A stretch of DNA of 64,000 nt from Polyangium mundeleinium (GCF_028369105.1 NZ_JAQNDO010000001.1:1843711-1907710); one strand, 5' to 3'. Shown: positions 6,949 to 63,821, counted from the stretch's first letter. A program made the numbers and translations. Notes: generated by a model not told the origin, from the letters alone.

Positions 6949-8718
6949 TCACTTCGCGGCCGCGTCCGTGGTCCAGAGCGAGCGGCGCATGGTTTCGAGC
7001 CGCTCGACCACGCCCGTGAGCTCGCGCGCCTCCGCGTCGCAGGCCTGCGTCGCGGCCTCCACGCCGGGCGCCTTGCCCGCTCGCTCGGTGCGCGCGGCTT
7101 CCAGCACCTCGATGACCTCGCGGTGCAGCTCTTCGCCCGCGGTCACGACCCACTGGTCGAGCCGCTGCGCGAACTCCTGGATCATCTCGTCGAGCTTCGG
7201 GCCGACGCGCGCGGCGGCCTCGCGCAGCGCGTTCGGGGCGAGCTCCTTGGCGCGCTTCCTCGTCTCGGCCTCGACCTTGTCCTTCACGTACACGGCGAGG
7301 ACGGGCGAGGCGAGCAGGAGCAGGCCGCCGAGCAGGACGTTCGTGAACATCACGCCGAGGCCGAGCGTGAAGAGCGCGAAAACGCCCACGTCGTAGCCGA
7401 GCGTGTCGACCTCCACGCTGGGCGAGCGGACGTCCGAGCCGAGCGCCTGCCCGACACGCTTGGCCACGTCGTGCGCGTCCTCGCGGACGAGCGCGATCGT
7501 CTTCTCGGCCAGCGCTTCGAGCGCGTTCGCGATCTCCTTCGTCTCGGCCTGCGCCCAGTCGGCGAACGTCTTCTCCAGGAAGGGGCCGAGCCAGACCTTG
7601 ATGTCTTCGGCCGAGTGGTTGTCGACGAGGTCCGGGATCTGCCGGGTCACGTCGTCGACGAAATGAGCGAGATCACGCTGCACCCAGGCGCGGATCGCGG
7701 CGACCTCCTCGCGGATGCCCACGCGACGCTCATCGATCGTGCGGGACTGGCCTGCGAGGTCCTTCTCCAGGAGGTCGATGCGGCGCGCGAGCTCCTCGCT
7801 CGACATTTGCGCGGCGCGCCTGCGCGCGTCGATGCCCTTCACCAGCATGCGCGCGGCTTCGAGGCCCTCGCCGAGCGCGTTGTCGAGCAGGATGCGGCCT
7901 CGCTCCTCGGCGAGGAACTTCGTCAGGTGCCCGAGCAGCTCGGGCATGCCGCTCTCCTCGGGGTGCCCCTCGGCCGCGCGCTTCGCGCTGACGGGGAAGA
8001 CCACGGGCGTGCGGATCAGCTTGGCGAGCTCGGTGCGGATGTAGGCGAGCGCCTCCTCCTCCTCGTCCTCGCTCCAGATGTCCTTCTTGGTGACGACGAA
8101 GATGATCTTGTCGCGCGACTGGCCGAGCAGCTTCTCGTTGAGGAAGACGCGCTCGCTCTCCTTGAGCGGCTGACCCGCGTCGATGAGGAAAAGCACGGCG
8201 TCCGAGCGCGGGATGTAGCTGTAGGTGATGTCCGCGCGCTGGAGCGAGAGGTCGTTCACGCCTGGCGTGTCGACGAGCACGATGCGCTCGCGGAGCAGCT
8301 CCGCCGGGTAGAAGACCTCGAGGTGCTTCACCTCGCTCGTCGCGCTCTCGGAGCCTTTTTCCTGACCGACGGCGAATTTGCGCACCTCCTCGAACGGCAT
8401 CGTCGTGCGCTCGCCCGAGGCCCGCACGAGCTCCGCGCGCGGCTCGGGCGCGTATTCGAGGTGGTGGATGACGGCCGTCGTCGGGGTCACGCCGACGGGC
8501 AGGACCTCGGCGCCGAGCAGCGCGTTCACGAACGTCGTCTTGCCGTGGTTGAACTCGCCGACGACGACGAGGTGGAAGCGGTCGGCGGAGAGTTTGTCGA
8601 CGACGTCGCTGCCGAGGCGGCCCGCGAGGGAGCGCGCGCCGACGCGGCCGGCGATCGAGAGCAGCTCGCGGAGCGTAGTGGTGATTTCGACCTGTCTCGT
8701 GCGGAATGTCTCGAGCAT
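6949..8718 (-). CDS. Bacterial dynamin-like GTPase (DLP)
   Basis: G1 VVVGEFNHGKTTFVNALLG and G3 DTPG are followed by a long helical stalk and two TM-like hydrophobic segments near the C-terminus. The start is set at MLETF, 4 nt after the upstream M48 stop. Confidence 0.8.
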   Translation of the reverse strand: MLETFRTRQVEITTTLRELLSIAGRVGARSLAGRLGSDVVDKLSADRFHLVVVGEFNHGKTTFVNALLGAEVLPVGVTPTTAVIHHLEYAPEPRAELVRASGERTTMPFEEVRKFAVGQEKGSESATSEVKHLEVFYPAELLRERIVLVDTPGVNDLSLQRADITYSYIPRSDAVLFLIDAGQPLKESERVFLNEKLLGQSRDKIIFVVTKKDIWSEDEEEEALAYIRTELAKLIRTPVVFPVSAKRAAEGHPEESGMPELLGHLTKFLAEERGRILLDNALGEGLEAARMLVKGIDARRRAAQMSSEELARRIDLLEKDLAGQSRTIDERRVGIREEVAAIRAWVQRDLAHFVDDVTRQIPDLVDNHSAEDIKVWLGPFLEKTFADWAQAETKEIANALEALAEKTIALVREDAHDVAKRVGQALGSDVRSPSVEVDTLGYDVGVFALFTLGLGVMFTNVLLGGLLLLASPVLAVYVKDKVEAETRKRAKELAPNALREAAARVGPKLDEMIQEFAQRLDQWVVTAGEELHREVIEVLEAARTERAGKAPGVEAATQACDAEARELTGVVERLETMRRSLWTTDAAAK

Positions 8719-8722
8719 CGTC

Positions 8723-9616
8723 CTACCCGACCACCTTGATGATGTCGTGCACCTTCTCGTCGACCTCTTCCATCGAGAGGCCGGGGCCTTCCTGGCCGAT
8801 GTGCTTCTTGTAAAGCTCACTCTCGGCGAACGTGCGCAGGGCCATCACGCGCTTCGGCAGGTAGGGGTGGCTCGCGAGCAGCTCGCGGTAGCGGCCCACG
8901 CCCTCCCGGCCCTCCTCGTACTGCGCGAGGAACGCGTCCATGTTGAGCTCGGCGTAGAGTTTTGCCGATCCGAGCGCGAGCTTGGCAAAGGTCCGCTGCG
9001 CGACCTCGAGGCTCCTGCAGCAGAGCAGCCCCGCGCGATCACACGTGACCTCGGCGCGGCGCGACCAGCTCGACAGCGCGACCACCGCGGGCTCGACCAG
9101 CGGGCCGAGCAAGCGCGAGGCCATGATCTTGAGGTAGTGCATCGCCGTCAGGTAGACGACGTGGCTGTTGTGGATGTGGCCGCACTCGTGGCCGATGACG
9201 TTTCGCAGGTCCTCGTCGGAGAAGTGATCGACGAGCGCGGAGTGGACCATGATGAACGAGTCATCGTTCGTCCCGTACGTCGCCGCGTTCATCTGCGGGT
9301 TGTTCAGGATGTAAACGGTCGGCGTCGCGATGCCGAGCGTCTGCGCGCATTCGGCGGCGATGCCATGCACGCGCGGGAACTGGTTCGTCCCGACCTTCAC
9401 TGCGTGGCCGAGGAGATCACTCTTGCCGACGGCCTTGAAGAACCGGACGGAGGCGGCGACCGCCAGCTCGACCGGCTTCATCTTGTCGAACGCGGCGCGC
9501 GTCGTCCGATCGGAGACGTACGCATACGCGTGTCCACCCCCGTCCACGCCGCCTGCGCGCTGTTCTTTGCGGTTCTCGATGAAGCCCTTGAAATCGAGCG
9601 TCCCGACTTGTGCCAT
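8723..9616 (-). CDS. M48-family zinc metalloprotease (HtpX-like)
   Basis: HECGHIHNSH contains the HExxH motif in an M48-like context. It is first in the minus-strand run M48, DLP, MglA-like, HK, thiL. Confidence 0.75.
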   Translation of the reverse strand: MAQVGTLDFKGFIENRKEQRAGGVDGGGHAYAYVSDRTTRAAFDKMKPVELAVAASVRFFKAVGKSDLLGHAVKVGTNQFPRVHGIAAECAQTLGIATPTVYILNNPQMNAATYGTNDDSFIMVHSALVDHFSDEDLRNVIGHECGHIHNSHVVYLTAMHYLKIMASRLLGPLVEPAVVALSSWSRRAEVTCDRAGLLCCRSLEVAQRTFAKLALGSAKLYAELNMDAFLAQYEEGREGVGRYRELLASHPYLPKRVMALRTFAESELYKKHIGQEGPGLSMEEVDEKVHDIIKVVG

Positions 9617-10754: not shown

Positions 10755-12635
10755 TTGGGGGAGACGCTCCGGCGAGCGGAGCTTGGCCCTCAAACCACCG
10801 TCCGAATGCAACAAATCTACGGAAACACCACGGGGCTGAGCCCCCACGCGGTTCGACTGCTCGAGCGTATCTATCGGCGCAAGGTCCCCCTCGATCACGT
10901 GGCCACGCCGGAGCTCGTCAAATCCCTCGCCGAGGCCTCGCACGTGACGGGGCGCCAGGTCGGCGCGCTCGTCCATCGATCGGGCGAGATCGACTACGTC
11001 GTCGTCGGTGACGCGACGAAGCTCATGCTCCCCGACATCGGCCGCCTGCGCGCCGCCGAGGGCCGCTTCCGCGCGCTCCGCCTCGTTCACACGCACCTCT
11101 ACAACGAGCAGCTCACGCGCGACGACATCGTCGACCTCGTGCGCCTGCGCCTCGACCTCGTGGCCGCGATCCAGCTCTCGCCCGAAGGCGAGGCGAAGAC
11201 GATGGATCTCGCGTACAACACGCCGCCATCCCCGGTTGCAGAGGGCGAGGATCCGCGAAATGGGTTGCCCTATCGGCGCGTGGGCCCGCTGCCCGTGGGC
11301 CGCATCGACATCCATTTCGGCGGGCTCATCAGCGCGCTCGAAGACGAGTTCGCCCGAAGGTCGCGCATCTTCACGCACGCGAAGGACGGCCGTGCGATCC
11401 TCGTGCACGTCGCGGAGAAGTCGAAGCAAGGCGCGTATGCGGAGGCCGAGGACAGCCTGCGCGAGCTCGCCGAGCTCTCGCGCACCGCGGGCGTCGAGGT
11501 CGTCGACAACGTCGTGCAGCTCCGCGAGAAGATCGACCCGCGCCTCGTCGTGGGGAAGGGCAAGCTCGACGACATCGTCTTGCGAGCGGCCGAGCTCGAC
11601 GCAGCGACCTTGGTCTTCGATCGCAACCTCACGCCTTCGCAGGCCTCCGCGATCTCCAAGCACGCCGACCTCAAGGTCATCGATCGGACGCAGCTCATCC
11701 TCGACATCTTCGCGCAGCGCGCCGAGTCCGCGGACGGCAAGCTCCAGGTCGAGCTCGCACAGCTCAAGTACGCCCTGCCGCGCCTCGCGTTGAAGGACGA
11801 CTCGCTCTCGCGCCTCACCGGCGGCATCGGCGGGCGTGGCCCCGGCGAAACCAAGCTCGAAATCGGGCGCCGCCGCGCCAAGGAGCGCGTCTCGTTCCTC
11901 GAAGCGCAGCTCAAAAAGCTCTCGCGTCAGCGCGAGCAGCGGCGCCGCAAGCGCGCGCGCAAGGACGTGCCGATCGTGAGCATCGTCGGCTACACGAACG
12001 CGGGCAAGAGCACGCTCCTGAACACGCTCACGGGCTCGGACACGATCGCGGAGAACAAGCTCTTCGCCACGCTCGACACGCGCTCGCGCCGGATCCGTTT
12101 TCCCGAAGAACGCGAGGTGATCATCACGGACACCGTGGGCTTCATCCGCGAGCTGCCGAAGGACCTGTTCGCCGCGTTCCGCGCCACGTTCGAGGAGGCC
12201 GCCGACGCGGACCTCATCCTGCACGTGGTCGACGCGAGCGACCCGGCCCACGACCAGCACATCGCGACGACCGAGGAGCTGCTCGGCGAGCTCGGGCTCT
12301 CGTCGATCCCGCGGATCCTGGTCTTCAACAAGGTCGACCTCGTCGAGAAGGGCGAGGCGCGGCGGCTGCTCTTCGGCAACAAGAGCGCGGTGCTCGTCTC
12401 CGCGACGAACCGCGAGACGACACGCGCGTTGCTCGCGACGATCGCCGATCGGCTGAAGGATCGGTGGGAGCAGGCGAGGACGGTGCCGGCCTACGACGTG
12501 GACGAGGACGAAGCGCAGGCAGGCGAGGGCGACGCCGCGGATGCGGCGCCTGCCGAGGAGGCGGAATCGTCGCTCACGACGCTCGCCGAGCTCACGGCGG
12601 GCAAGCGTTATCGGCGGACGACGTTGCGGGTTTGA
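10755..12635 (+). CDS. hflX: GTPase HflX with long N-terminal extension
   Basis: HflX N-domain and G-domain motifs VSIVGYTNAGKSTLLN and DTVGF are present. The ~190-aa N-terminal extension leaves the start uncertain (alternative ATG at 10806). Confidence 0.85.
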   Translation: MGETLRRAELGPQTTVRMQQIYGNTTGLSPHAVRLLERIYRRKVPLDHVATPELVKSLAEASHVTGRQVGALVHRSGEIDYVVVGDATKLMLPDIGRLRAAEGRFRALRLVHTHLYNEQLTRDDIVDLVRLRLDLVAAIQLSPEGEAKTMDLAYNTPPSPVAEGEDPRNGLPYRRVGPLPVGRIDIHFGGLISALEDEFARRSRIFTHAKDGRAILVHVAEKSKQGAYAEAEDSLRELAELSRTAGVEVVDNVVQLREKIDPRLVVGKGKLDDIVLRAAELDAATLVFDRNLTPSQASAISKHADLKVIDRTQLILDIFAQRAESADGKLQVELAQLKYALPRLALKDDSLSRLTGGIGGRGPGETKLEIGRRRAKERVSFLEAQLKKLSRQREQRRRKRARKDVPIVSIVGYTNAGKSTLLNTLTGSDTIAENKLFATLDTRSRRIRFPEEREVIITDTVGFIRELPKDLFAAFRATFEEAADADLILHVVDASDPAHDQHIATTEELLGELGLSSIPRILVFNKVDLVEKGEARRLLFGNKSAVLVSATNRETTRALLATIADRLKDRWEQARTVPAYDVDEDEAQAGEGDAADAAPAEEAESSLTTLAELTAGKRYRRTTLRV

Positions 12636-12697: not shown

Positions 12698-13651
12698 TCA
12701 CGGCGCGCATTCGCCGGCCGTGCACACGTTGGAGATGCACTCGTCCGGCATATCGCAGGGCGTGCCGGCGAGCTTGAGGCAGGTCGTCGCGTCGCTGCAG
12801 GCTTCACCCGCACCGCACGCCGGATCGGGCGTGCCCGCCGGGACCGGCGTGCACATGCCGGCCGTGCCCGTGCCGTCGCACGCGAGGCAGAGCCCGTTGC
12901 ACGCGGTGTTGCAACAGACGCCGTCGGCGCAGAAGCCGCTCTGGCAAGCGTTCGCCGTCGCGCACGCCGCGCCGTTCGCGACCTTCGGCGCGCACGTGCC
13001 GCCGCCGTTGCAGTAGTTGCCGGCTGCGCAGTCCGCGTCGAGCGTGCAGGTCGTGCCGCAGGCGTTCCCGCTGCAGGCATAGGGCGCGCAGGCGACGTTG
13101 TCGTTCGCCTGGCACGTGCCTGTGCCGTCGCAGGTGTCGGGCTGGTTCGCGATGCCGTTCGCGCAGGACGCCGTGGCGTCTCCGCACGCCGTCCCGAGGG
13201 CCTCGTCCGTCACCTGCTCGCCGCCTGCGGCGTCGCACGTGTGCTGCTTGCAGTCGCCCGCCACCTCGTTCGACGACGGGCTACCTTGCGCCTTCGGCTC
13301 TTCGCCGCAGTTCTTGGTCGCGTCGCAGATCGCGATCACGCACGGGCCCGACGGCGGAGGGCAGTCGGCTGCAGGATCGACACACGTGCCGGTGCTGCCG
13401 CCTTGGCCACCTTGGCCACCTTGGCCGCCCTGACCACCTTGGCCGCCGACACCGCCAACGCCGCCTTGGCCACCGATGCCGCCTTGGCCACCGATGCCGC
13501 CCGTGCCGCCCGTGCCTCCCGTGCCGCCCTCGCCAATCGGGATCTTGTCGCGATCGACGGAAGCGACGAGCTCGCAGCCCGCGCCCACGGAGAGGGCGAC
13601 GCCCGTGCAGAACACGAGCGTTGCCCAGCTTCGAGTGCTCCGTGCTTTCAT
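12698..13651 (-). CDS. Secreted lipoprotein with Gly-rich (GGxGGxGG) tract and tandem Cys-rich repeats
   Basis: Signal plus lipobox SVGAGC. The GGTGGTGGIGGQGG tract is followed by more than 40 Cys in short CxxGxC spacings. Confidence 0.6.
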   Translation of the reverse strand: MKARSTRSWATLVFCTGVALSVGAGCELVASVDRDKIPIGEGGTGGTGGTGGIGGQGGIGGQGGVGGVGGQGGQGGQGGQGGQGGSTGTCVDPAADCPPPSGPCVIAICDATKNCGEEPKAQGSPSSNEVAGDCKQHTCDAAGGEQVTDEALGTACGDATASCANGIANQPDTCDGTGTCQANDNVACAPYACSGNACGTTCTLDADCAAGNYCNGGGTCAPKVANGAACATANACQSGFCADGVCCNTACNGLCLACDGTGTAGMCTPVPAGTPDPACGAGEACSDATTCLKLAGTPCDMPDECISNVCTAGECAP

Positions 13652-55004: not shown

Positions 55005-55904
55005 GTGCGCGTGTTCTTCTGCGATCACGTGGAGGTCCCGCTTCCGCCTGGGCATCGCTTCCCGATGGCGAAGTACGCACGCCTGCGCGAGCGCCTGCTT
55101 TCAGCGCTCCTGCTCGATCCGACGGACCTCCAGCCTTCCACGCCCGCCTCGATCACCGACCTCGCGCGTGTCCACGCGCCGCACTACCTCGAAGGCTTGC
55201 TCTCGGGCACGCTCGACCCCCGCATCTTGCGCGCCATTGGGTTTCCCTGGTCCGACGCCCTCGTGCGCAGGTCGCGCGCCAGCGTCTCGGGCACCCTCTG
55301 CGCCGGCCGCGCGGCCCTGGAAGACGGCATTTCGGGAAACCTCGCCGGCGGCACGCACCACGCCTTCGCGGATCGCGGCGCTGGATTCTGTGTCTTCAAC
55401 GACATCGCCGTTGCCTGCCGCACCTTGCTCGACGCGGGCGACGTCCGCCGTGTGCTCGTCCTCGACCTCGACGTCCACCAGGGCGACGGCACCGCCTCCC
55501 TTTTCGGAAACGAGCCCCGCGTGTATACGGCCTCGATCCACGGCGAAAAGAATTTCCCTTTTCACAAGCAGCAGAGCGACCTCGACCTCGCGCTCCCGGA
55601 CCAGACGGGCGACGACGAATACCTCGCCGCGCTCGAACCTTTTCTCGCCCGCGCCTTCGCCGAATCGAACCCCGATTTGGTTTTTTTCCAGGGCGGCGTG
55701 GACGCCCTCGCGGCGGACAAACTGGGCCGGCTCGGCATGACGGCGGCGGGCATGCGCAGGCGGGACGAGCGTGTCCTCGGCGAGGCGCGCCGCCGCGGCA
55801 TTCCGATCGCGCTCACCCTGGGCGGTGGATATACCGATCCCATCGACGCGACCCTCGCCGCGCACGTCGGGACGTATGCGGTCGCCCGTGAGGTCTTCGG
55901 ATGA
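55005..55904 (+). CDS. Histone deacetylase-family Zn-dependent deacetylase (AcuC/AphA-like)
   Basis: GGTHHAF...GFCVFNDIA...LDLDVHQGDG...GGGY motifs. GTG start with SD AAGGAGAGG. Confidence 0.85.
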   Translation: MRVFFCDHVEVPLPPGHRFPMAKYARLRERLLSALLLDPTDLQPSTPASITDLARVHAPHYLEGLLSGTLDPRILRAIGFPWSDALVRRSRASVSGTLCAGRAALEDGISGNLAGGTHHAFADRGAGFCVFNDIAVACRTLLDAGDVRRVLVLDLDVHQGDGTASLFGNEPRVYTASIHGEKNFPFHKQQSDLDLALPDQTGDDEYLAALEPFLARAFAESNPDLVFFQGGVDALAADKLGRLGMTAAGMRRRDERVLGEARRRGIPIALTLGGGYTDPIDATLAAHVGTYAVAREVFG

Positions 55905-56257
55905 CGCCCGGACGCATCACGCTGCTCCTCCTCGCGACGTTGCTTTCGGCCTGCCGTGGCGGCGAATCGGCCGACGCGACGCCGACACCGCCCGAGACCA
56001 CGCCGTCGGCCGCGCCCTCGCCCTCGCCCTCACCCTCCATGCCGCGCCGCCCGACGATCCGCCATTACCTCGCGCGCACGGCGGAGCGATGCGAGGTGTA
56101 TTCGGTCGACCGGGACGCCGTCTCCCCGGCCACGCGCACCCCGTGCCCGCCGGATTTGCAGATCGGCGAGCGCATTCGTGTCATGGGGAAATCGTGCATG
56201 CGGGAGGGGAGCACCGAACGGACGCAGCCGGTGGTGTGTCCGGGGGCGCTCTTGTAA
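55901..56257 (+). CDS. Small hypothetical lipoprotein
   Basis: Lipobox LLSAC. ATGA overlap with the deacetylase stop. Confidence 0.45.
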   Translation: MTPGRITLLLLATLLSACRGGESADATPTPPETTPSAAPSPSPSPSMPRRPTIRHYLARTAERCEVYSVDRDAVSPATRTPCPPDLQIGERIRVMGKSCMREGSTERTQPVVCPGALL

Positions 56258-56836
56258 GTAGGCGGCGCGGGCCGCCGACGGTGGATGGCGGGGGCTCCCC
56301 GAATCGAATCGTCGAAACGGTCATGTTTCGCGCGTCCGCCTCTTGTTCTGCCGCCGAACGAGCTTCGCCTCCCCTGGGGGCCCGCCGGCTCTCGTCCCCG
56401 AACGCTTCCCGGTTCCCCGGCCGCCCCCTGTTTCGCGGCAAGCTGTGACCGTCGTCGCGTCCGCCTCCTGTTTTGCTCCGTGAGCCTGTCGGCTCGACCT
56501 CCGGACGGGGATTTTTTCGCGAAACAGCCCCGGGCTTGTCTCGCCGGCCGGCCGTTGTTTCCCGCAACCACGCCGGGACGCGGCCGCAATCCATTGTTGT
56601 TTGCGCCTGAAGCGAGGCGGACCCGCGGACCAATCCTGTCCTGTCGCAAAACGAGTCCCGGCCCGCCGCGCACCTCCTTGTTCGGCAGCCGAACAGGACC
56701 CGTCTCCGGAGGGCGGAGCCAGTCGGGGTTGCTTCGAATGAGGTGTTCGGCGTGGCTTGGCTGTATCGTGAAGATGCGAGCGCCTCATGGGCTCGCTGGT
56801 GGATGTCCTTGGGGCTTTGGGCGTGGGAGGGTGCGC
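56258..56836. promoter_or_regulatory. 579-nt noncoding region with five TGTTT(C/G)(C/G)CG boxes, a TTTCGCGAAA palindrome and three ~32-nt direct repeats (CGCGTCCGCCTCYTGTTYTGC...)
   Basis: Boxes at 56324, 56429, 56515, 56556 and 56598. Long repeats at 56331-56363, 56452-56484 and 56667-56697. No convincing ORF. Confidence 0.35.
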
Positions 56837-57358
56837 ATGAAACGGATCGTCATCGGGGTGCTGCTCGTTTCGATCGCTCTGCCTGCGCCTGGGTGCACGG
56901 AGGACAAGTGCAAGAATCCGGCAAAGAGCAGCGACCGGATCAGAAACATCTGGAGGGATGGGGATGCGATCAAGTGCAACGCGGTCGTGACCTGCCCCGG
57001 TCATGGCGGGCGCCCGGACAACAGGTTTGCGCTTCAGGGCCTTGAGGATCCCACCACCATCGACCAGCATCGCGATGACTGGAACGAGGGCCATTGCAAG
57101 CAGAAGGTCTGGGACCAGCCGTGGTGGAACCCCGAGTGCACGGTCGTGGTGTCTCCGGCGATCAGTTGCCTCGATGTGGATGGGGGATCAGGTGCGCCTG
57201 GGCCCACGCCCACGGGAGGGACCCTGGTCACGGTCGGCGTCGGAGCGGGAAGCGGGGACTACTGGATCACCGAGCAGGGGGTGGGTGGCGCGGGGGGCGT
57301 GGGCGGCGCTGGAGGGTTCAGCGAAGAGCCCGGGGAGGCTGGGCACGGCGGAGAGTAA
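56837..57358 (+). CDS. Small lipoprotein with Cys/Trp-rich core and Gly-rich C-terminus
   Basis: MKRIVIGVLLVSIALPAPGC lipobox. SD GGGAGGG. It lies within the conserved ~47-nt leader also found at 60713. Confidence 0.55.
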   Translation: MKRIVIGVLLVSIALPAPGCTEDKCKNPAKSSDRIRNIWRDGDAIKCNAVVTCPGHGGRPDNRFALQGLEDPTTIDQHRDDWNEGHCKQKVWDQPWWNPECTVVVSPAISCLDVDGGSGAPGPTPTGGTLVTVGVGAGSGDYWITEQGVGGAGGVGGAGGFSEEPGEAGHGGE

Positions 57359-57880
57359 TCACCGCTCAGGAACCGCGCCGGACGAGCCTGAAAGTGGCGA
57401 TTGTCCCGTGGCCTCCCGCAACCTGGCGTACCAATCCGTGCCCGTGAGCGCGGGGCAAAGCGACTCCGTCTTGGTACGAAAACAAGCCAGGAATTCCTGC
57501 TGGTCGATGTTCCTCGACTGGTGCTTTTGTTGCAGCGAATCCTGGCAGCGAGTCCCGGCGATATCGGTGTCGCGCCAGAAGCGAGCCCCCTGCATGTCTT
57601 CGCACGAGGCGCAAAAGACCGGGTCAAGCCCCGTGCAAGGCACCTTCTCCGGGCAGAACGACAGGACGCAGCTCGCCAGGCATGCGTCCATGTACTCTTC
57701 GGTGACGACACGACAATCAACGTGCGTGCAGTACCCCTCGGTCAGCTCTGCGAGGTCCTCGCAAATCTCTTCACGGGTTTGGCCCGTGCCCCTGGGCTCC
57801 CCCCGATACGCCCCCAGCCCCACGGTGACCAGCGCGACGGCAGCGACGGCGATGGCGATGTACGATCCGCGGCGTTTCAT
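57359..57880 (-). CDS. Secreted/membrane-anchored Cys-rich protein, paralog 1
   Basis: N-terminal TM/signal IAIAVAAVALVTVGLGAYRGE. 11 Cys. Shared motifs GARFWRD, TRC, CFRTKTE..CPALTGTDW. The ~60-nt conserved upstream leader is duplicated in the paralog. Confidence 0.6.
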   Translation of the reverse strand: MKRRGSYIAIAVAAVALVTVGLGAYRGEPRGTGQTREEICEDLAELTEGYCTHVDCRVVTEEYMDACLASCVLSFCPEKVPCTGLDPVFCASCEDMQGARFWRDTDIAGTRCQDSLQQKHQSRNIDQQEFLACFRTKTESLCPALTGTDWYARLREATGQSPLSGSSGAVPER

Positions 57881-57960
57881 GGCTGTCTCCCCTGGGCCCC
57901 GACGAGCCTACACCAATCCACCGGGAAAGACGAGCATCTTGCCGCGAAGCACGGGAGAGC

Positions 57961-58461
57961 TCATTGCCCCAGCGCAGTCAGCATCCGCGCGTGCCAGTCG
58001 GTACCGGCGAGCGCCGGACAACGCCGCTCGGTCTCAGTCTTGAAACAGGTGACCCATGCCTCTCGGCTGGGGGCCGGGACCTTCTCGTGAGCGACGGGCG
58101 CTTTGAGCTCGTTGCTACACCGCGTTTCTGCGTTGTTCGCGTCGCGCCAGAAGCGGGCGCCGTGCAGGTCCTCGCACGGCGCTCGCCAGATCGGGTCGGC
58201 GTTGCGGGGTAGCAATGGGGCGTAGTCCGGGCAGTACGTCATCAAGCAACCCGCCTCGCAAGCGTCGGCGAAGTCTTCCGTAATCGCCATACAATGGCCA
58301 AGATGAGCACCCTGCTCGCACATCTCGATGGCGGTATCGAGGTCCGAGAGGCAACTCTCTTCCCCCGTGTAGGGCACTTCCCCCCGATACGCCCCCAGCC
58401 CTACGGCGACGAGCGCGACGGCGGCGACGGCAACGGATAGCATCGATCGGCGGCGTTTCAT
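57961..58461 (-). CDS. Secreted/membrane-anchored Cys-rich protein, paralog 2
   Basis: About 45% identical to paralog 1 with the same N-terminal anchor, conserved Cys pattern and duplicated leader. Confidence 0.6.
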   Translation of the reverse strand: MKRRRSMLSVAVAAVALVAVGLGAYRGEVPYTGEESCLSDLDTAIEMCEQGAHLGHCMAITEDFADACEAGCLMTYCPDYAPLLPRNADPIWRAPCEDLHGARFWRDANNAETRCSNELKAPVAHEKVPAPSREAWVTCFKTETERRCPALAGTDWHARMLTALGQ

Positions 58462-58608
58462 GGCTGTCTCCCCTGGGCCCGGTGAGCCTACACGCGCCCG
58501 CCGGGAAAAACGAGCGCGCTTCGGGGCGGATCGCGTGGCACGGGCACGGGGGGCGTTCCCTGGAAAAACCGTGTCACCCTCCTGCCCCCTGCGGCAAAGA
58601 TCCCGAGC

Positions 58609-59226
58609 ATGACGCCTCGTTCGCAGTCGACCGACTTCCCCGCGGCCATTGCGGCCCTCGTCCCGGACATTCGCCAGCTCGTCATGGGTGCATTGCGGCG
58701 CCAGGGGGCGGATCCGGACCTCGCCGAGGAGCTGATTCAGGAGATCGTCATCACGCTCCTCGGTAGCGCGTCGACCTATCGTCCCGAGCTCGGCGCGCTC
58801 CGGCCGTGGGCGCATGGCGTCGCGATGAATGTGGTGAAGAACCGCCGCCGGAGCCGCGTCGGCTTCAAGGGTGGCGAACGCTCCACGAGCACACGTGCCG
58901 CTGGGCCCTTCCAAGCACCGCCCTATGGGCGTTTCTCCTCGCCGGCGCGCGCCCGGTGCCGCCTTCCCTGGCGCGCGCTGGCCTTCACGTTCCTGCGGTC
59001 CACGTGGCGGCGCAGGCGGAGACGCCGCACGCAGAGGCCCTCGCCCTTCCGGCGCTCTCCCTTGCCACCGAACGCCGCACGCCGACGCCTCCTTCGCCTC
59101 GCCGCGAGGCCCGGCCTCGGCTCCTTTTTCACATCCAGGGCATTACGCCCGGAGACGAAGGGGGTTCGTCCCGGTAATGGACGGCCTTGCAGCATGCGTC
59201 GCGCCGCGTGTACCATGCGGGGATGA
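58609..59226 (+). CDS. ECF-type sigma factor (clear region 2; Arg-rich atypical region 4)
   Basis: DPDLAEELIQEIVITLL...WAHGVAMNVVKNRRR matches Sigma70_r2. The C-terminal LPPNAARRRLLRLAARPGLGS only loosely resembles region 4.2. It is divergent from the Cys-rich paralogs. Confidence 0.5.
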   Translation: MTPRSQSTDFPAAIAALVPDIRQLVMGALRRQGADPDLAEELIQEIVITLLGSASTYRPELGALRPWAHGVAMNVVKNRRRSRVGFKGGERSTSTRAAGPFQAPPYGRFSSPARARCRLPWRALAFTFLRSTWRRRRRRRTQRPSPFRRSPLPPNAARRRLLRLAARPGLGSFFTSRALRPETKGVRPGNGRPCSMRRAACTMRG

Positions 59227-59579
59227 TTCGAGCGTTCGGGGGCCTTTCGTTGTTGGTGGCGCTCGGCGGCGTTGCGAGGGCGGAGACCGGCACCGACGCG
59301 GACGCTGCCGCGGCCGTGCGATTCGAGGCCCTCGCGACGATGGGGGACCGCGCGCGCGCCGCAGGGCGGCTCCGGGAAGCTGCCATCGCGTATGGGCAGG
59401 CGCTGGAGGTGCGGAACGATCCGCTCGTCGCGGGCCGGCTCGGCGTGCTGCTCGTGGAGATGGGCACGCCCGGGCAAAGCCGTTCGGTCTCAGAAGGTGG
59501 GAGACCTCCGGCCCCGCGGACGCGCGGAGCGAGCGAAGAGCGTGTCGGGTCTACAGGCTGGGAAAGCCGAGGAATTTGA
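59223..59579 (+). CDS. Small secreted protein, ATGA-coupled to the ECF sigma gene
   Basis: Signal peptide LVALGGVARA/ETG. It has no cytoplasmic anti-sigma-like domain. Confidence 0.4.
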   Translation: MIRAFGGLSLLVALGGVARAETGTDADAAAAVRFEALATMGDRARAAGRLREAAIAYGQALEVRNDPLVAGRLGVLLVEMGTPGQSRSVSEGGRPPAPRTRGASEERVGSTGWESRGI

Positions 59580-59625
59580 CGAGAGACGTTGTGGACCTGT
59601 ATGTCGGAGTGCGGAGGGAGGACCT

Positions 59626-59997
59626 ATGAAGCTGCTCGCAGGTCTCGGAGCGCTTTTTCTGTACGGTTCGCTCGGTGTCGCGTCGGGCGTGGGTGACATC
59701 CAGCAAGAACCGCCGCCGCCCATGTCGTTGACAACGATGGGAGCCGCGCCCACAGGAGTTGTGCCCGAAGGGGGCGCGGCGGTGCAGGCGGCGGGCTCGA
59801 CAGGACGGCGGCCCGTAATGCTCCAGGAAATGAGCGATGAGGAGAAGGAGCGACGGAGAGAGGAATGCGCAACGTTGTACGAGCACTGCTACGATTGGTG
59901 CGGGAAGGCGCACAAGCGCGGCAGTGCTGCGCTGCGGCGTTGCAATCAGGAGTGCTCGGACAAGAATACAGAGTGCATGAAAAAGATTCCGAACTGA
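59626..59997 (+). CDS. Small secreted protein with C-terminal 6-Cys module
   Basis: SD GGAGGGAGG. Signal peptide, then CATLYEHCYDWCGKAHKRGSAALRRCNQECSDKNTEC. Confidence 0.5.
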   Translation: MKLLAGLGALFLYGSLGVASGVGDIQQEPPPPMSLTTMGAAPTGVVPEGGAAVQAAGSTGRRPVMLQEMSDEEKERRREECATLYEHCYDWCGKAHKRGSAALRRCNQECSDKNTECMKKIPN

Positions 59998-60013
59998 AGC
60001 CACGGCGCACCTG

Positions 60014-60691
60014 ATGGACATCCTGACGACACGAACCCTGCGGTACACCGACGAGGGCGGCGGGACCGAGGAGGATGTGGTTCTCACCATCTTCGTGCCC
60101 TTCGAACAAGACGATGGGCAATGGTTGTGCGTGTTCGATTTCGAACCGCCCATCAAGCCAAGGTTCATGAAGGGGTGCGGCGTCGACATCATCCAGGCAT
60201 TCGTCCACTGCCTGATCTTTGCGCGCCTCTCCTTCGAAACCACACGCTGGTCGAGGACCGGCCATTGGCAAGGATTACGCGACTGCGGCTTGCCCATGAA
60301 CAAGGGTCCCTGGCCGGATCAGCCGCCCGAAATCCCACCACCCGAAGACAACCCCGGAACCCTCGAGGTCTTTGCGACCCGGAGGCTCGGCTGTCCTGAC
60401 GAAACCGGCGCAGCCACGGAGCTTCTCCTCACCGTTTTCAAGCCCTACCAGGCAGAGGGCGACACGTGGAAATGCGCCTTCGCCTTCGGTCCATCCGAGA
60501 CCGCGCCCATTCGCCATGGCACCGGAGCGGACTTCATCGAGGCCGCTCTCGACGGGCTCGCCCTGGCGCGAGCGACCTACGAAAGCATGCTGCCGAAGGG
60601 CTGGGCTCCGGCGTCGGAAAACCTCCTCGATTGTGATGACCTGCCCTTCAAAATCGGGCGGTCGTTCTGGACGGGTGGGCCGACGTCGTAG
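60014..60691 (+). CDS. Cytoplasmic protein composed of two tandem ~85-aa homologous domains
   Basis: Internal repeat VVLTIFVPFEQDDGQWLCVFDF... versus LLLTVFKPYQAEGDTWKCAFAF... No signal peptide. It starts 17 nt after the preceding gene. Confidence 0.55.
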   Translation: MDILTTRTLRYTDEGGGTEEDVVLTIFVPFEQDDGQWLCVFDFEPPIKPRFMKGCGVDIIQAFVHCLIFARLSFETTRWSRTGHWQGLRDCGLPMNKGPWPDQPPEIPPPEDNPGTLEVFATRRLGCPDETGAATELLLTVFKPYQAEGDTWKCAFAFGPSETAPIRHGTGADFIEAALDGLALARATYESMLPKGWAPASENLLDCDDLPFKIGRSFWTGGPTS

Positions 60692-60742
60692 CGCCGAGGA
60701 ACACCGCTTCGTCTCGCCGGTGGATGTCCTTGGGCTTCGGGC

Positions 60743-61641
60743 GTGGGAGGGGGCGCATGCTCGGCGCCAGACGGCTTCTGGCGCGGGGAGTGCGATCCGG
60801 ACCCGTTTTCCCCGAGCGAGCTGTGCCCGGAGCCGCAAGATGCTGGCACCGACGCCGATGCCGATAGCGACGCTGGCCTTGGCACCCCTGGTGCGGATCC
60901 CCAGTCGACGAGCTGTGAGCACGGTGGCGGTCGTTGCGTCCCGGTGCCGAGCGGCGGGGAACATGCGGGATTGTGGAGCAAGGAGCCGATCGCGTTATGG
61001 GTGGGTCCGACGCCCAAGGAAGGGGATCCGCCGCTCGTGTGTCCGAAGGGCACATCGAGCGAGCAATTCCGCCTCTACAGATGGAGGAGCCGTGCCAGCC
61101 CGTGAAGGCGGTGCCGGATTTCACGACGAAGACCGAATGGCAGACGGCAGCGCTCGGGTGTACGGCCAACCTGGACGATGATTCATGCGGTTCGCGCGAG
61201 AAGTCTTGCGTCGCGGATCCGGGGTTCGAGTACCTGCAATGTGTGCACCGGGAAGGGAAGTTCACGCTGGAGGATTGCCCGATGAACTACCGCTATGCGT
61301 GGTATGTGGGGTATCCAGAGAAAGCAGTGGACGATCGCGGGTGCGAGGCGTGCGCGTGCGGGCCCGTCGCGGGGAGTGGTTGTGTGGCTTCGGTCCGGCT
61401 CTACAACGACGCCGCTTGCGCGTCGCAGTTCGAGCAGGGCGGCCTCGCCTCCGGCTACGAGAAGTGCATCAACATCGTCGCGCCCGGCCGGGCCCTCGGA
61501 GCCAAAGCGATCACGGATCTCGCCTACGTGCCTGGCGAATGCGCGAGCAGCGGCGGCACGCCCACCGGGGCGGCGACGCGGGACGCCACCGGCGCGGTGA
61601 CGTTCTGCTGCCTCGGGCCGTTTTACCTCGACATCAACTGA
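60743..61641 (+). pseudogene. Frameshifted/decayed Cys-rich secreted-protein gene sharing the leader of the 56837 lipoprotein
   Basis: The conserved leader ATG at 60757 opens only a 36-aa frame. A protein-like reading needs the GTG frame 60743-61105 plus a +1 shift near 61040-61060 into the 60934-61641 frame (Cys/Trp/Tyr-rich, ending FCCLGPFYLDIN). Confidence 0.4.
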
Positions 61642-61746
61642 ACACGGCCCCGCGCACCTCGTGCCCGCCGGATTTGCAGATGAGCGCCTCGCTGGCCTGG
61701 GGTGCAGTATGGGGCAACGCCCGAGCTCCGCGCCTGCACGAAGCCG

Positions 61747-62060
61747 CGTGTGCATTCATGGGGCGGCCTTGTGCCTTCGTGACGGCGACGTCTGCCGCGG
61801 CGGAGCGAGTGTGTGCATTTTCACGTCGGCGCGCTGCATTCCTGCGGTCGGCGCGTGCCTCCATGGCAGCGACGTGTGCCGCCACACGTCGAGGGCCTGC
61901 CTTGGGGTGGGGCGAGCGTGCCTTCGCGGGGAGAGGGTGTGCCGTCCCACGTGGACGGCGTGCCTTGGCGGGGTGGGGGGATGCATCCGTGGGGGAGGGG
62001 GTTGCCGCGCGGGGGCGGGGGCGTGCAATCACGCGCCGGATCACGCATTCCTGGGCCGCC
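61747..62060. repeat. Degenerate ~22-nt G-rich tandem repeat array (~13 units, consensus GTGCCTTSGCGGGGWGGGG)
   Basis: Units read directly, e.g. GTGCCTTGGGGTGGGGCGAGC, GTGCCTTCGCGGGGAGAGGGT and GTGCCTTGGCGGGGTGGGGGG. There are multiple G4-capable GGGG runs and no convincing ORF. Confidence 0.5.
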
Positions 62061-62168
62061 GGGCTCGAGGCGAAGGCCAGGAGATAACGCTCCGGTCACC
62101 CCGCCCCTCCGCCCCGCAACGCCGCCTCCCCCTCCGACATCGAAACCACGATCGAGGAGGATCTTCCA

Positions 62169-63821
62169 ATGGAGCGCTGGGACACGGTCGTCGTTGGATC
62201 GGGTTCGGGGGGACTCACGGCCGCGGTCGCGCTCGCGCGGGCGGGGCAGCGCGTCCTCGTCCTCGAACAGCATTATTTGCCGGGCGGCTGGACGCACAGC
62301 TTCGCGCTCGACGGATATCGGTTCAGCCCGGGCGTCCATTACATCGGCGAACTCGGCCCAGGCCAGTCCGTCCGGGCGTTGTACGAGGGCCTCGGCCTCT
62401 CCTCGGACCTCGTCTTCCACGAACTCAACCCAGACGGCTTCGACCATTTCGTCATCGGCGGCGAGCGCTTCGACGTCCCGCGTGGCTTCGATCGCTACTT
62501 CGAGCGCCTCGTCTCCCGCTTCCCCCACGAGCGCAAAGGGCTCGAACGATACTTCGACGTCGTCGGCCGTATCGTCTCCGACACGCTCCGCTGCGAGGAT
62601 CTCCTCGCCTCGCCACAAGGCGCGCTCGCGCTCCCGTTTCGCGGAAAAAGCCTCGTCACCTGGGGCCTCCGCACCCAGCGCGCCCTCCTCGACGGCACTG
62701 TTCGCGACCCGCTCCTCCGGGGCATCCTCGCCGCGCAATCGGGCAACCATGGGTTGCCTCCCTCGCGCGTCTCGCTCCCCCTCCATGCCCGCATGATCAC
62801 CCATTACTACGACGGCGGGTATTATCCGCGCGGCGGCGCCAAGCGCATTCCGTCGGCCATGATCAAGGCCCTCCGCAAGCGCGGCGGCGAGATCCGCCTC
62901 CGCACCCGCGTCCGCCGCATCCTCGTCGAATCCGGCCGCGCGGCCGGCGTCGAGCTCGCCTCGGGCGAGCGTATCCTCGCCCGCGCCGTCGTCTCCAATG
63001 CCGACCCCGCGATCACCTTCGGCGCGCTCCTCGAATCGCCGCACGGCGAGCGCGAGCGCCGGAAGATCCGCCGCATGGAATACTCCGTCGGCCTGCTCAG
63101 CGTCTTCTGCGCCACCGACCTCGACCTCTCCGCGATGGGCCTCGATTCGGGCAATTGCTGGTGTTATCGCACCCTCGACGTGAACGGCGTCTACGAACGC
63201 GCCCTCCACGCGCTCCCCCACGGAATCGTCGAGGGCCTCTTCCTCACGGTCACCACCTTGAAGGACCCCGGCCACGCGCCGAAGGGCCACCATACCCTGG
63301 AGCTCTTCACGTTCGTCCCCTACGAACCCTTCGAACGCTGGGCCGGCAACGCCGCGGCGCGGCCCGCGGGATACCACGACCTCAAGGAGCGGCTCGGCGA
63401 CGCCATGATCGCCGCGGCCGAGCGCGTGATTCCGGGGCTCGGCAAGAACCTCACCTTCCGCGCCGTGGGCACGCCCCTCACGAACGATTTTTATTGCGAG
63501 ACCCACCGCGGCGCGAGTTATGGCACGGCGAAGATCCCCGCCCAGCTCGGCCCCTTTTCGTTCCCCATTCGATCGAGCGTCCCCGGGCTCTACAGCGTCG
63601 GCGCGAGCACGCTCAGCCACGGCGTCGCGGGCGCGGCCACGTCCGGCCTCTTCGCGGCGCGGGACATCCTCGGCCTCCGGCGCATCGAGGACCTCCTCGC
63701 CCCGTCCGACGGCTCGCTCCAGGTCGTCCTGGCCAGCGACGTCGCGCCCGCCTCCGGGCCCCGCAGGCCCGCACATGCCGCGCCTCCCGAGGACGACGCC
63801 GAGGACGCGCTCGCCTCCTGA
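62169..63821 (+). CDS. FAD-dependent oxidoreductase of the phytoene desaturase (CrtI/COG1233) family
   Basis: N-terminal Rossmann DTVVVGSGSGGLTAAVALARAGQRVLVLE and CrtI-like length. SD GAGGAGG. Confidence 0.8.
   Translation: MERWDTVVVGSGSGGLTAAVALARAGQRVLVLEQHYLPGGWTHSFALDGYRFSPGVHYIGELGPGQSVRALYEGLGLSSDLVFHELNPDGFDHFVIGGERFDVPRGFDRYFERLVSRFPHERKGLERYFDVVGRIVSDTLRCEDLLASPQGALALPFRGKSLVTWGLRTQRALLDGTVRDPLLRGILAAQSGNHGLPPSRVSLPLHARMITHYYDGGYYPRGGAKRIPSAMIKALRKRGGEIRLRTRVRRILVESGRAAGVELASGERILARAVVSNADPAITFGALLESPHGERERRKIRRMEYSVGLLSVFCATDLDLSAMGLDSGNCWCYRTLDVNGVYERALHALPHGIVEGLFLTVTTLKDPGHAPKGHHTLELFTFVPYEPFERWAGNAAARPAGYHDLKERLGDAMIAAAERVIPGLGKNLTFRAVGTPLTNDFYCETHRGASYGTAKIPAQLGPFSFPIRSSVPGLYSVGASTLSHGVAGAATSGLFAARDILGLRRIEDLLAPSDGSLQVVLASDVAPASGPRRPAHAAPPEDDAEDALAS

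Follow-up and report, generated by a model that had tools for sequence, protein, structure and literature searches.

The described systems closest to the locus considered here are of several kinds. Bacterial plasticity zones, or hypervariable accessory loci, combine conserved flanks with content that varies among close relatives, a reduced GC fraction, pseudogenes, and the traces of duplication and deletion, and this locus resembles them in all these respects. Extracytoplasmic function (ECF; group IV) sigma factors with a C-terminal extension form a fused sigma/anti-sigma-like type. Toxin–immunity and bacteriocin–immunity pairs join an exported protein to a small cytoplasmic one. Plant alpha-hairpinins are C-X3-C-Xn-C-X3-C helix-loop-helix defence peptides, such as the vicilin-buried peptides (PMC11591084). 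Finally, DUF6968 (PF22302) is an uncharacterised protein family of which we found no mention in the literature searched.

Variability and composition of the locus

How variable is this locus among close relatives? We analyzed a 64,000-nucleotide stretch of the Polyangium mundeleinium genome (hereafter the window) and compared it with the two other genomes of the syntenic set, Polyangium sp. y55x31 (L001) and P. sorediatum (L081). An interval of ∼6 kb (positions 56258–62160) differs in gene content across all three. To its left, the window is colinear with both relatives at 89–96% nucleotide identity. This conserved flank ends in gene B (55901–56257, plus strand; called from its ORF and GC3 frame), which encodes a 118-aa lipoprotein and lies just outside the interval; its start overlaps the stop of the deacetylase gene by 4 nt, its orthologs come after the deacetylase gene in both relatives, and its dN/dS is 0.35–0.39. 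To the right lies gene K (62169–63821, plus strand), encoding an FAD-dependent amine-oxidase/phytoene-desaturase-like oxidoreductase (Pfam Amino_oxidase, E 1.8e-30). A counterpart of K was not matched in L001 or L081, and the right flank is not syntenic with either relative.

Between these flanks, y55x31 has a single D gene, is without C and H-I, and retains sigma (interrupted by a stop), G, and J. P. sorediatum still has C, D, and the repeat array, together with 71 nt left from the 3' end of I, and is missing E, sigma, G, H, and J. GC content falls to 0.585–0.64 near C and the H-I cassette and to 0.62–0.68 over C–E, against 0.69–0.79 in the flanks. Profile and protein database searches returned no housekeeping homolog for any intact protein of the interval. 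A sequence-only reading of this DNA had called the interval accessory-looking and had proposed looking for its presence or absence in relatives; with content that varies in three of three Polyangium genomes, a dip in GC, and intact proteins lacking housekeeping homologs, that description holds. The same reading had counted one pseudogene, where we find three (sigma, G, and J).

The dN/dS values of C, D, E, H, and I (0.24–0.68) exceed those of flanking housekeeping genes (0.05–0.19) and indicate that all five are under purifying selection. Open frames and dN/dS are likewise what lead us to regard the C-D/E and H-I cassettes as putatively intact and functional. Taken together, the interval would consist of three kinds of material: the wreck of an envelope-signalling cluster; two autonomous, mainly Polyangium gene pairs; and edges marked by scars and repeats. 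Because the sigma gene is broken and the cassettes recur without it, we read the interval as an assemblage of wreckage and mutually independent cassettes rather than as a single regulon, an interpretation that only partly supports the earlier one.

Remnants of a sigma factor, G, and J

The earlier claim of an ECF sigma factor stands for one domain. A remnant at 58609–58845 (plus strand) contains sigma region 2, which serves core binding and −10 recognition, and nothing more of the regulator in frame: residues 22–83 match PF04542 (Sigma70_r2) at 42.4 bits (cut-off 24), while the score against TIGR02937, 28.6 bits, is under its cut-off of 42.9. Region 4, which recognises the −35 element, was not matched at E up to 1 in three forward-frame ORFs and one reverse-strand ORF over 58609–59629, so what had been read as a sigma factor is a fragment with no region 4 in any of these frames. 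Relative to L001, a clean 346-nt deletion with its junction at ∼58839–58845 took region 4 and shifted the frame; the equivalent L001 segment scores Sigma70_r4_2 at E 4e-15. The mechanical ORF reads on out of frame to 59226, and an out-of-frame remnant of the C-terminal membrane-spanning extension, which aligns to the end of the sigma ORF in L001, lies at 58806–59177 (plus strand) and has no Pfam match. On this alignment the sigma gene of the window is a pseudogene, and since region 4 is deleted and the frame shifted, the remnant cannot direct transcription. The ortholog in y55x31 has an in-frame stop after region 2.

The remnant nevertheless has the clear sigma-70 region 2 of ECF sigma factors with a C-terminal extension, and in its y55x31 ortholog a hydrophobic, membrane-type extension comes after regions 2 and 4. 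P. spumosum has a paralog of 317 aa that is built in this way. The window copy departs from this type in that it lacks region 4 and has its tail out of frame.

Could a working ECF sigma factor still drive a toxin or signalling regulon in which the secreted Cys-rich proteins are expressed together, as the earlier reading proposed? The Sigma70_r2 match speaks for it, as does gene order: in the window the remnant and E are divergent neighbours, as are sigma and D in L001, and this divergent placement in two species may reflect an ancestral regulatory link between sigma and D/E. However, region 4 is gone and the frame shifted here, and the y55x31 ortholog carries its stop codon. Nor does sigma co-occur with its proposed targets across genomes. 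P. sorediatum lacks the sigma gene and yet keeps C and D; C-D is found without this sigma gene in L081, L082, and L084, and H-I in L087, L088, L089, L090, L092, L213, and L214. In addition, H appears to have its own sigma-70-like sequence upstream, within its mobile block, by our reading of the DNA (a promoter scanner did not call it). We therefore consider such a regulon very improbable, and for this genome the earlier proposal of a sigma-controlled toxin or signalling island is largely refuted.

Downstream of the sigma remnant, gene G survives at 59223–59480 (plus strand) as a signal peptide and the first TPR-like segment, 86 of 408 codons, in an ORF that reads on to 59579. In tblastn, residues 1–86 of L001 G match at 88% and homology then stops. 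The full-length gene lies at 13477–14703 in L001, and its product ends in F, with a C terminus that looks outer-membrane-barrel-like. The third pseudogene, J (60764–61641, plus strand), derives from a Cys-rich lipoprotein gene. It has lost codons 1–23 (signal peptide and lipobox) and, internally, 257 nt; because of the internal loss it is split over two frames, with residues 24–132 of the 403-aa L001 J matching by tblastn in one frame and residues 196–403 in another, and the gap in blastn agrees. J had earlier been taken for a decayed paralog. The decay of a Cys-rich gene is borne out, and the gene is an ortholog of an intact sister-species gene, not a paralog.

Sigma, G, and J would be the wreck of one envelope-signalling cluster, whose ancestor may have comprised an ECF sigma factor with a membrane-spanning extension, a secreted TPR protein (G) with an outer-membrane-like C terminus, and a Cys-rich lipoprotein (J). 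The cluster appears largely preserved in Polyangium sp. y55x31, where G and J are intact and sigma has its in-frame stop; in the window, deletions have inactivated all three genes. Might the pseudogenes instead be sequencing or assembly artefacts, with an ECF-G-J cluster that is really intact? Indel errors are possible in high-GC myxobacterial assemblies, and one of these might explain the single stop in the L001 sigma gene. What the window shows is of another order, however: a 346-nt and a 257-nt deletion, 322 lost G codons, and a J 5' end replaced by foreign sequence, none of them a single-base change. Our reading of the alignment also finds GAA microhomology at the sigma junction, and the public P. 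mundeleinium genome encodes D and H proteins that match those of the window exactly. An artefact is thus barely credible, and we retain the wrecked cluster as our explanation.

Two autonomous cassettes

The C-D/E cassette would be an autonomous pair in which a lipoprotein gene is convergent with one or two genes for a disulfide-rich helical protein, N-terminally anchored or secreted. C (56837–57358, plus strand) encodes a 173-aa lipoprotein; its alignment shows six invariant Cys besides that of the lipobox, ALPAPGC, and a tail rich in Gly. Its signal peptide, as read from the sequence, ends in MKRIVIGVLLVSIALPAPG-C, with the Cys invariant in five homologs. The C family has 37 representatives among 1.84 billion proteins. 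C had no match in Pfam, NCBIfam, PADLOC, or PHROG and nothing significant among PDB sequences (best E 0.37); it is absent from L001, and its dN/dS is 0.34–0.37. D (57359–57880, minus strand), also 173 aa, is convergent with C, their stop codons abutting, and combines a conserved N-terminal hydrophobic segment (MKRR...GLGAYRGE) with a 12-Cys all-helical domain. Its tandem paralog E (57961–58461, minus strand; 166 aa) is 50% identical to D, and the 5' ends and upstream DNA of the two genes are duplicated (57798–57935 versus 58379–58515, 76–87%). E-type proteins have lost two Cys together, and since the E-type homologs P0007 and P0008 occur in metagenomes, the D/E duplication is old. The dN/dS of E is 0.35 against L084.

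Cys counts in the mature proteins are all even (C 6, D 12, E 10, H 6), and C, D, E, and H probably work outside the cytoplasm as disulfide-bonded proteins. Tandem secreted Cys-rich paralogs and small secreted proteins had both been proposed, and both descriptions fit: D and E are the paralogs, C and H the small proteins, all of them probably exported. The C-D/E pair was found in four neighbourhoods (the window, L081, L082, and L084). Searches bearing on the function of C and D gave no PADLOC, PHROG, or significant PDB sequence match, and a fold search with the D structure model gave no informative or convincing one. Each pair, C-D/E and H-I, would retain its own upstream DNA wherever it is found, and both families are small and largely confined to Polyangium.

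The H-I cassette (59545–60700, plus strand) is delimited by 84% blastn identity to 7924–9081 of P. spumosum L087. H (59626–59997, plus strand) has a Sec-type leader and a GGAGG ribosome-binding site; its linker is variable and its C-x6-C-x3-C-x13-C-x3-C-x6-C hairpin conserved. I (60014–60691, plus strand) has no signal peptide and matches DUF6968 in two stretches at 76.6 bits (cut-off 27), in line with the earlier description of a repeat-domain cytoplasmic protein. Its structure model (pLDDT 91.6) has two domains, each a beta-sheet packed on a helix. Against the earlier statement that no component belongs to a nameable family, I is thus a member of a named, uncharacterised one. NCBI names the P. 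spumosum and P. sorediatum relatives of I "DUF6968 family protein". I differs from the family at large as a tandem two-domain protein of ∼225 aa, mainly from Polyangium and nearly always with an H-family gene in front. The families comprise 26 proteins (H) and 36 proteins or clusters (I), and dN/dS across H-I is 0.24–0.37.

The order H-then-I, with the genes 0–20 nt apart, recurs in eight neighbourhoods (the window, L087, L088, L089, L090, L092, L213, and L214–217) whose neighbouring genes are unrelated, and the cassettes often adjoin restriction-modification or defence-type genes. L091 has one I-like gene without H, a single-domain DUF6968 gene behind a protein with a variable Cys-rich C terminus. 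The H-I cassette would be a bicistron—not in L091, but wherever both genes occur—whose first gene specifies a Sec-exported helical-hairpin mini-protein with three disulfides and whose second specifies a cytoplasmic protein with tandem DUF6968 domains.

What might H resemble? Its core C-x3-C-x13-C-x3-C, invariant or almost so in 24 family members, conforms to the alpha-hairpinin motif C-X3-C-X(4–20)-C-X3-C, and the best PDB sequence match of the H profile is the plant alpha-hairpinin VBP-10 (6wqj_A) at a borderline E of 0.0063. From the symmetric Cys spacing and this borderline alignment, H may have a helix-loop-helix fold pinned by disulfides. H differs from the plant peptides in being bacterial and, by prediction, Sec-exported, with a long variable linker; in an extra outer Cys pair at x6, versus the x3 spacing of plant six-Cys forms; and in being roughly charge-neutral by residue count on the translation. 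The likeness is borderline and probably convergent.

H-I most likely encodes an effector or peptide for export along with an intracellular protein dedicated to it, either an immunity protein or a pre-export handler, and H may be a secreted effector. A narrower version makes H a secreted alpha-hairpinin-like toxin for predation or competition and I the immunity protein of the producer, i.e., a bacteriocin-like antimicrobial system. The tight linkage in eight neighbourhoods, the conserved six-Cys hairpin with VBP-10 as its top PDB match, the frequent proximity of defence-type genes, and the "immunity" position of the L091 gene all favour it. As in toxin–immunity pairs, an exported and a small cytoplasmic protein are encoded side by side, move as a unit, and stay adjacent in unrelated neighbourhoods, often with restriction-modification genes. 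Unlike such pairs, H-I has no toxin domain, delivery domain, or known immunity fold recognisable by PADLOC or fold searches, and for I the PADLOC, PHROG, PDB sequence, and fold searches gave no significant or convincing match. Because I lacks a signal peptide and H is exported, a direct interaction after export is not obvious. We hold the bacteriocin-like version to be rather unlikely and keep the broader effector-and-partner reading, the functional part of which is weak, as the D and I structure models match nothing informative.

Edges, repeats, and comparison with plasticity zones

The edges of the interval appear to carry rearrangement scars and repeat DNA: a copy of the region upstream of C, a fragment of gene B, and a 21-bp array. 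At the left, the 579-nt B-C intergenic region (56258–56836) contains the previously claimed array of transcription-factor boxes as a cluster at 56324–56751, which holds 9 of the 27 TGTTYBSC matches in the whole window; the pattern was drawn from the region itself, after inspection. A near-perfect palindrome, TTGTTCGGCAGCCGAACAG, lies within the cluster at 56677–56695 and is kept in L001, and ∼270 nt of the spacer is missing from P. sorediatum. The cluster has no GC3 periodicity and no Rfam match. Duplicated leaders had also been noted, and we recover them: the DNA that immediately precedes C, along with the ATG of C (56778–56839), has a second copy at 60699–60759 (plus strand; repeats D6/D7; blastn 91% over 45 nt, E 1.8e-11), which bridges the H-I cassette and the J remnant and lies outside the H-I homology block.

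A 37–42-nt fragment of gene B (56127–56168) recurs 90–95% identical at 61645–61686 (plus strand; repeat D5), 4 nt past the J stop. Are these direct repeats the ends of a mobile genomic island integrated site-specifically into the 3' end of B? They almost exactly bracket the variable interval, and GC is lower inside. However, the candidate ORFs scanned in the interval matched no integrase, recombinase, or transposase family, and no tRNA was found. Neither L001 nor L081 has the second copy, although both share parts of the content at the same site, so that attachment repeats do not flank the content wherever it occurs; the repeat belongs to the window only. The content is moreover a mosaic of cassettes with separate histories. 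Site-specific integration is accordingly a poor candidate that we give little credence, and a composite origin remains our preference.

The right edge is formed by 14 phased 21-nt units at 61750–62043 (plus strand; consensus GTGCCTTCgcGgGGcGGggGt), with TGC invariant at unit positions 2–4 and a 63-nt super-period. The autocorrelation reaches 0.50 at lag 21 and 0.58 at lag 63 (shuffle maximum 0.445), and six phased TGC units give 9 matches versus 0.00 expected, which bears out the G-rich tandem array reported earlier; its units are too degenerate for TRF, which missed it. G-runs of the G-quadruplex type lie at 61970–62001. RNA folding z-scores are −1.7 and +0.65, and there is no Rfam match. The block common with P. 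sorediatum (∼61683–62094, ∼96% identical) is upstream of a Ser/Thr kinase gene there, not of an oxidoreductase gene, and synteny breaks at this point. One could suppose that the array encodes a protein with Cys (or Arg-His) at every seventh residue, since its period is a multiple of three and the TGC-as-Cys frame has the highest third-position GC (0.78–0.84). Yet the 14 substitutions relative to P. sorediatum split 5/3/6 over the three coordinate phases and thus carry no coding signal, in none of the frames do the two species have a plausible start and stop in common, the Cys frame would enter gene K, and the downstream gene is not the same in the two species. A coding array is therefore most unlikely, and we treat it as a DNA-level element.

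Overall, the locus is probably a fast-changing accessory site—a plasticity zone of ordinary type that holds unusual orphan content—rather than a single functional unit. It departs from other plasticity zones in two ways: integrase, transposase, and tRNA landmarks were not found among the candidate ORFs scanned, and an unusual array of phased 21-bp units lies at its right edge.

Gene content and rearrangement at the locus

How stable is the interval between the deacetylase and the FAD oxidoreductase? We mapped it by combining an ORF list with third-position GC. The deacetylase gene (55005–55904, + strand) and the lipoprotein gene B (55901–56257, +), both placed on ORF and GC3, overlap by 4 nt (start of B and stop of the deacetylase, 55901–55904), an arrangement kept in both relatives compared below. 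It is probable that B shares a transcript with the "housekeeping" deacetylase and belongs to the conserved flank and not to the variable section. Beyond a 579-nt spacer lie the lipoprotein gene C (56837–57358, +), the cysteine-rich paralogs D (57359–57880, −) and E (57961–58461, −), a sigma-like ORF starting at 58609 (+), G' (from 59223 onward, +), H (59626–59997, +), I (60014–60691, +), J' (60764–61641, in two frames), a repeat block, and the FAD oxidoreductase K (62169–63821, +; Pfam Amino_oxidase, E 1.8e-30). The D and H proteins are 100% identical to NCBI-named Polyangium mundeleinium proteins.

We compared this locus across three genomes: P. mundeleinium, Polyangium sp. y55x31 (the nearest genome in a species-representative scan, with 95% deacetylase identity), and P. 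sorediatum. The left flank is colinear at 89–96% nucleotide identity up to 56373–56770. The order then runs C, D, E, sigma remnant, G', H-I, a copy of C-upstream DNA, J', a B fragment, array, and K in P. mundeleinium; D (without C and without E), a sigma gene with a stop codon, G, J, a coiled-coil gene, a Ser/Thr kinase, and a sigma-54 activator in y55x31; and C, D, short scars, the array, and the same kinase and activator in P. sorediatum. Past the conserved array comes K in P. mundeleinium, but the kinase and activator in P. sorediatum and y55x31; because orthologs of neither gene were found anywhere in the 64-kb window, synteny ends at ~62094. GC falls to 0.585–0.64 around the H-I cassette and C, against 0.69–0.79 in the flanks. 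Falling GC together with differing gene content marks the interval as a plasticity zone. The sequence-only reading had called the interval accessory-looking and named comparative genomics as a check; locus content indeed differs among the three genomes, GC is low, and synteny is not invariant.

Several scars record this rearrangement. The 62 nt immediately 5' of C, ATG included, recur at 60699–60759, which bears out an earlier claim of a duplicated leader. A 37- to 42-nt piece of B coding sequence (56127–56168) is duplicated at 61645–61686, 4 nt past the J stop and exactly where y55x31 homology ceases; this copy occurs in P. mundeleinium only and is probably a rearrangement footprint. The P. 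sorediatum scars comprise a C-tail fragment and the 71 nt at the 3' end of I. There (L081, reverse complement 10813–10922), 32 nt of the Gly-rich tail of C abut the 71-nt 3' remnant of I. Taken with the C-upstream copy beside I in our window, these scars hint that a second copy of C once adjoined the H-I cassette.

Two noncoding elements noticed in the sequence-only reading are also present. TGTTYBSC boxes, a pattern picked after inspection of the region, are concentrated in the B–C spacer (9 of 27 window matches); since the cluster, partly retained in y55x31, is mostly deleted in P. sorediatum, it is not needed for C. In the G-rich tandem array, each of the 14 units measures exactly 21 nt and carries an invariant TGC (autocorrelation 0.50 at lag 21 and 0.58 at lag 63, vs. 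a shuffle maximum of 0.445); runs of six phased TGC units were matched 9 times vs. 0.00 expected. P. mundeleinium and P. sorediatum share ~96% identity across the array, about as much as in the genes that flank it, and the array lies upstream of a different gene in each. A coding reading is unsupported: of the 14 array substitutions, the three coordinate-mod-3 phases carry 5, 3, and 6. Folded as RNA, the array showed no excess stability; a permissive Rfam search of 55800–62300 gave no match, and a metagenome search for eight TGC units in phase returned unrelated tandem repeats alone, none homologous to the array. Within it, a G-quadruplex-type run (GGGG-T-GGGGGG-N10-GGGGG-A-GGGGG; + strand, 61970–62001) lies 170 nt 5' of the K start codon. 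Twenty-one base pairs equal two helical turns, and the array may be a protein-binding or recombination-prone element.

A sigma pseudogene with decayed neighbors

Is the island controlled by its sigma factor, as the sequence-only reading proposed? The sigma-like ORF retains a detectable region 2 (Pfam, NCBIfam), in keeping with the ECF sigma then recognized. Region 2 is all that was detected, and region 4 had no match in the three forward-frame ORFs and one reverse-strand ORF scanned. Nucleotide alignment against the y55x31 ortholog reveals a clean 346-nt gap, and the y55x31 segment that fills it scores Sigma70_r4_2 (E 4e-15). As 346 is not divisible by 3, the deletion also throws the membrane-type C-terminal tail out of frame. 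The window's ECF sigma gene is, by its nucleotide sequence, a pseudogene, and its remnant cannot work as a sigma factor. The y55x31 ortholog carries an in-frame TGA directly past region 2 (L001:12742–12750); unless this is a sequencing error, the gene was disrupted independently in two species. The P. sorediatum locus has no copy.

Decay extends to two further genes, both intact downstream of sigma in y55x31: G encodes a secreted TPR protein of 408 aa whose C-terminal domain is barrel-like, and J a Cys-rich lipoprotein of 403 aa. In the window, G keeps codons 1–86 alone, and J lacks codons 1–23 plus an internal 257 nt and is split between two reading frames. The single "decayed paralog" of the sequence-only reading is indeed decayed; because J is intact in y55x31, it is a decayed ortholog instead, and, read from these alignments, it is one of three pseudogenes (sigma, G, and J) in the interval. 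The sequence-only reading thus holds for most of what it observed, but its unifying idea of a sigma-controlled island is not tenable, as the sigma gene is dead and the cassettes described below recur without dependence on it. The tempting annotation of an "ECF sigma regulon" is therefore corrected to a dead sigma gene beside unrelated cassettes.

Two recurrent gene cassettes

The tandem Cys-rich paralogs reported earlier are D and E, 50% identical, with duplicated 5' ends and upstream DNA. Since E-type proteins are present in other organisms, the split between them is old. D has 12 cysteines and E 10, and the two lost together in E-type proteins would be disulfide partners of each other. The small secreted Cys-rich proteins likewise hold up: C carries a lipobox plus six other invariant cysteines, and H a Sec-type leader plus six conserved cysteines. 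C, D, E, and H are all predicted to be exported and disulfide-bonded. Both families of the first cassette are rare (11 clusters only for D/E among 5.8 billion proteins; 37 representatives for C among 1.84 billion). The convergent pair of C with D or E occurs in the window, in P. sorediatum, on a Polyangium-like contig with an adjacent type I restriction system (L082), and on a metagenome contig where its neighbors are VWA-CHAT genes (L084). PDB sequence searches with the C and D/E profiles, and with J of y55x31, gave nothing significant. We can only say that C-D/E is a putative envelope protein pair, and claim nothing more specific.

The second cassette pairs H with I, in which DUF6968 is matched in two stretches (76.6 bits), confirming the repeat-domain protein of the sequence-only reading. 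Relatives of H (26) and I (36) come mainly from Polyangium or Polyangium-like contigs. H is followed by I at a gap of 0–20 nt in eight neighborhoods (the window, L087, L088, L089, L090, L092, L213, and L214–217), and no neighboring gene other than H and I is common to these eight. Window block 59545–60700 has a counterpart in P. spumosum, 84% identical, whose neighborhood is wholly different. A further locus, L091, has one I-like gene without H. For the five intact genes (C, D, E, H, and I), dN/dS is 0.24–0.68, vs. 0.05–0.19 for flanking housekeeping genes; as far as such substitution patterns indicate, they are real, fast-evolving genes. Judged by their genomic distribution, both cassettes are independent of the sigma remnant.

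Both cassettes, as found elsewhere in genomes and metagenomes, repeatedly adjoin restriction-modification or conflict-type genes (L082:1966–7939, L089:5217–12328, L213:1–2739, and L084:1833–5115), namely type I R-M, Cas6/HNH, N6_Mtase/Eco57I, and VWA-CHAT. This adjacency may be a mere clustering of accessory genes in variable islands.

The locus is of an ordinary kind, a decaying, rearranging accessory region with orphan content. It shows that locus turnover is quick in these 13-Mb predator genomes and holds two compact gene pairs known mainly from Polyangium, C-D/E and H-I, each of which moves as a unit and is under selection. Should none of these points hold, what is left is a plain accessory region.

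The H-I pair and known systems

The most promising lead at the locus is H-I. Its transcription would start from its own upstream sequence (TTGACG-N18-TATGTC, then a GGAGG site, read by eye); a promoter scanner made no call on this motif, and a scan for sigma-70 promoters and terminators performed at or below chance. The profile searches named as a check in the sequence-only reading identified DUF6968 in I; none of the island proteins matched an entry in PADLOC or PHROG, nor did the cassette proteins match NCBIfam. Structure prediction, also named there, yielded a confident model of I (pLDDT 91.6, pTM 0.90) with two similar domains, each a beta-sheet packed on a helix. Neither the PDB nor the viral models (Foldseek against viral structures, no match at E 0.001 or better) offered a convincing structural relative. 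The I profile had no significant match among PDB sequences, and the literature searched makes no mention of DUF6968.

Our preferred guess, though with the odds against it, is that H may be an exported effector or peptide and I its intracellular partner (an immunity protein or pre-export handler). A broader and quite improbable reading would make H-I an undescribed bacterial system (H a Sec-exported, triple-disulfide, alpha-hairpinin-like effector for predation or competition, or a signal; I a dedicated intracellular immunity protein or chaperone, a role that would supply the first function for DUF6968), C-D/E a second undescribed mobile two-protein envelope module, and the phased 21-bp TGC array an element that binds protein or is prone to recombination, and so a marker, perhaps even the cause, of the hypervariable edge.

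How does H-I compare with known systems? The P. spumosum locus L091 (WJIE01000003; L091:212–3757) holds an operon led by a 317-aa ECF sigma factor that is extended at its C-terminus and shares 36% identity with the y55x31 sigma. Two paralogous signal/TM proteins follow, with ~175 N-terminal residues in common and differing ~55-aa Cys-rich C-termini, each succeeded by a distinct small cytoplasmic gene, one of them a single-domain DUF6968. The H profile had no significant match to these variable C-termini. The arrangement is reminiscent of polymorphic toxin-immunity loci, DUF6968 occupying the place of the immunity gene. For H itself, the top PDB sequence match of its profile was the plant alpha-hairpinin VBP-10 (E 0.0063), a borderline value and the sole such hit. 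Plant alpha-hairpinins are defined by C-X3-C-Xn-C-X3-C (PMC11591084), and H has the symmetric pattern C-x6-C-x3-C-x13-C-x3-C-x6-C. We take this likeness as analogy and not as membership, and H-I offers a concrete, testable handle on the uncharacterized DUF6968 family and on what may be a bacterial counterpart to the plant peptides.
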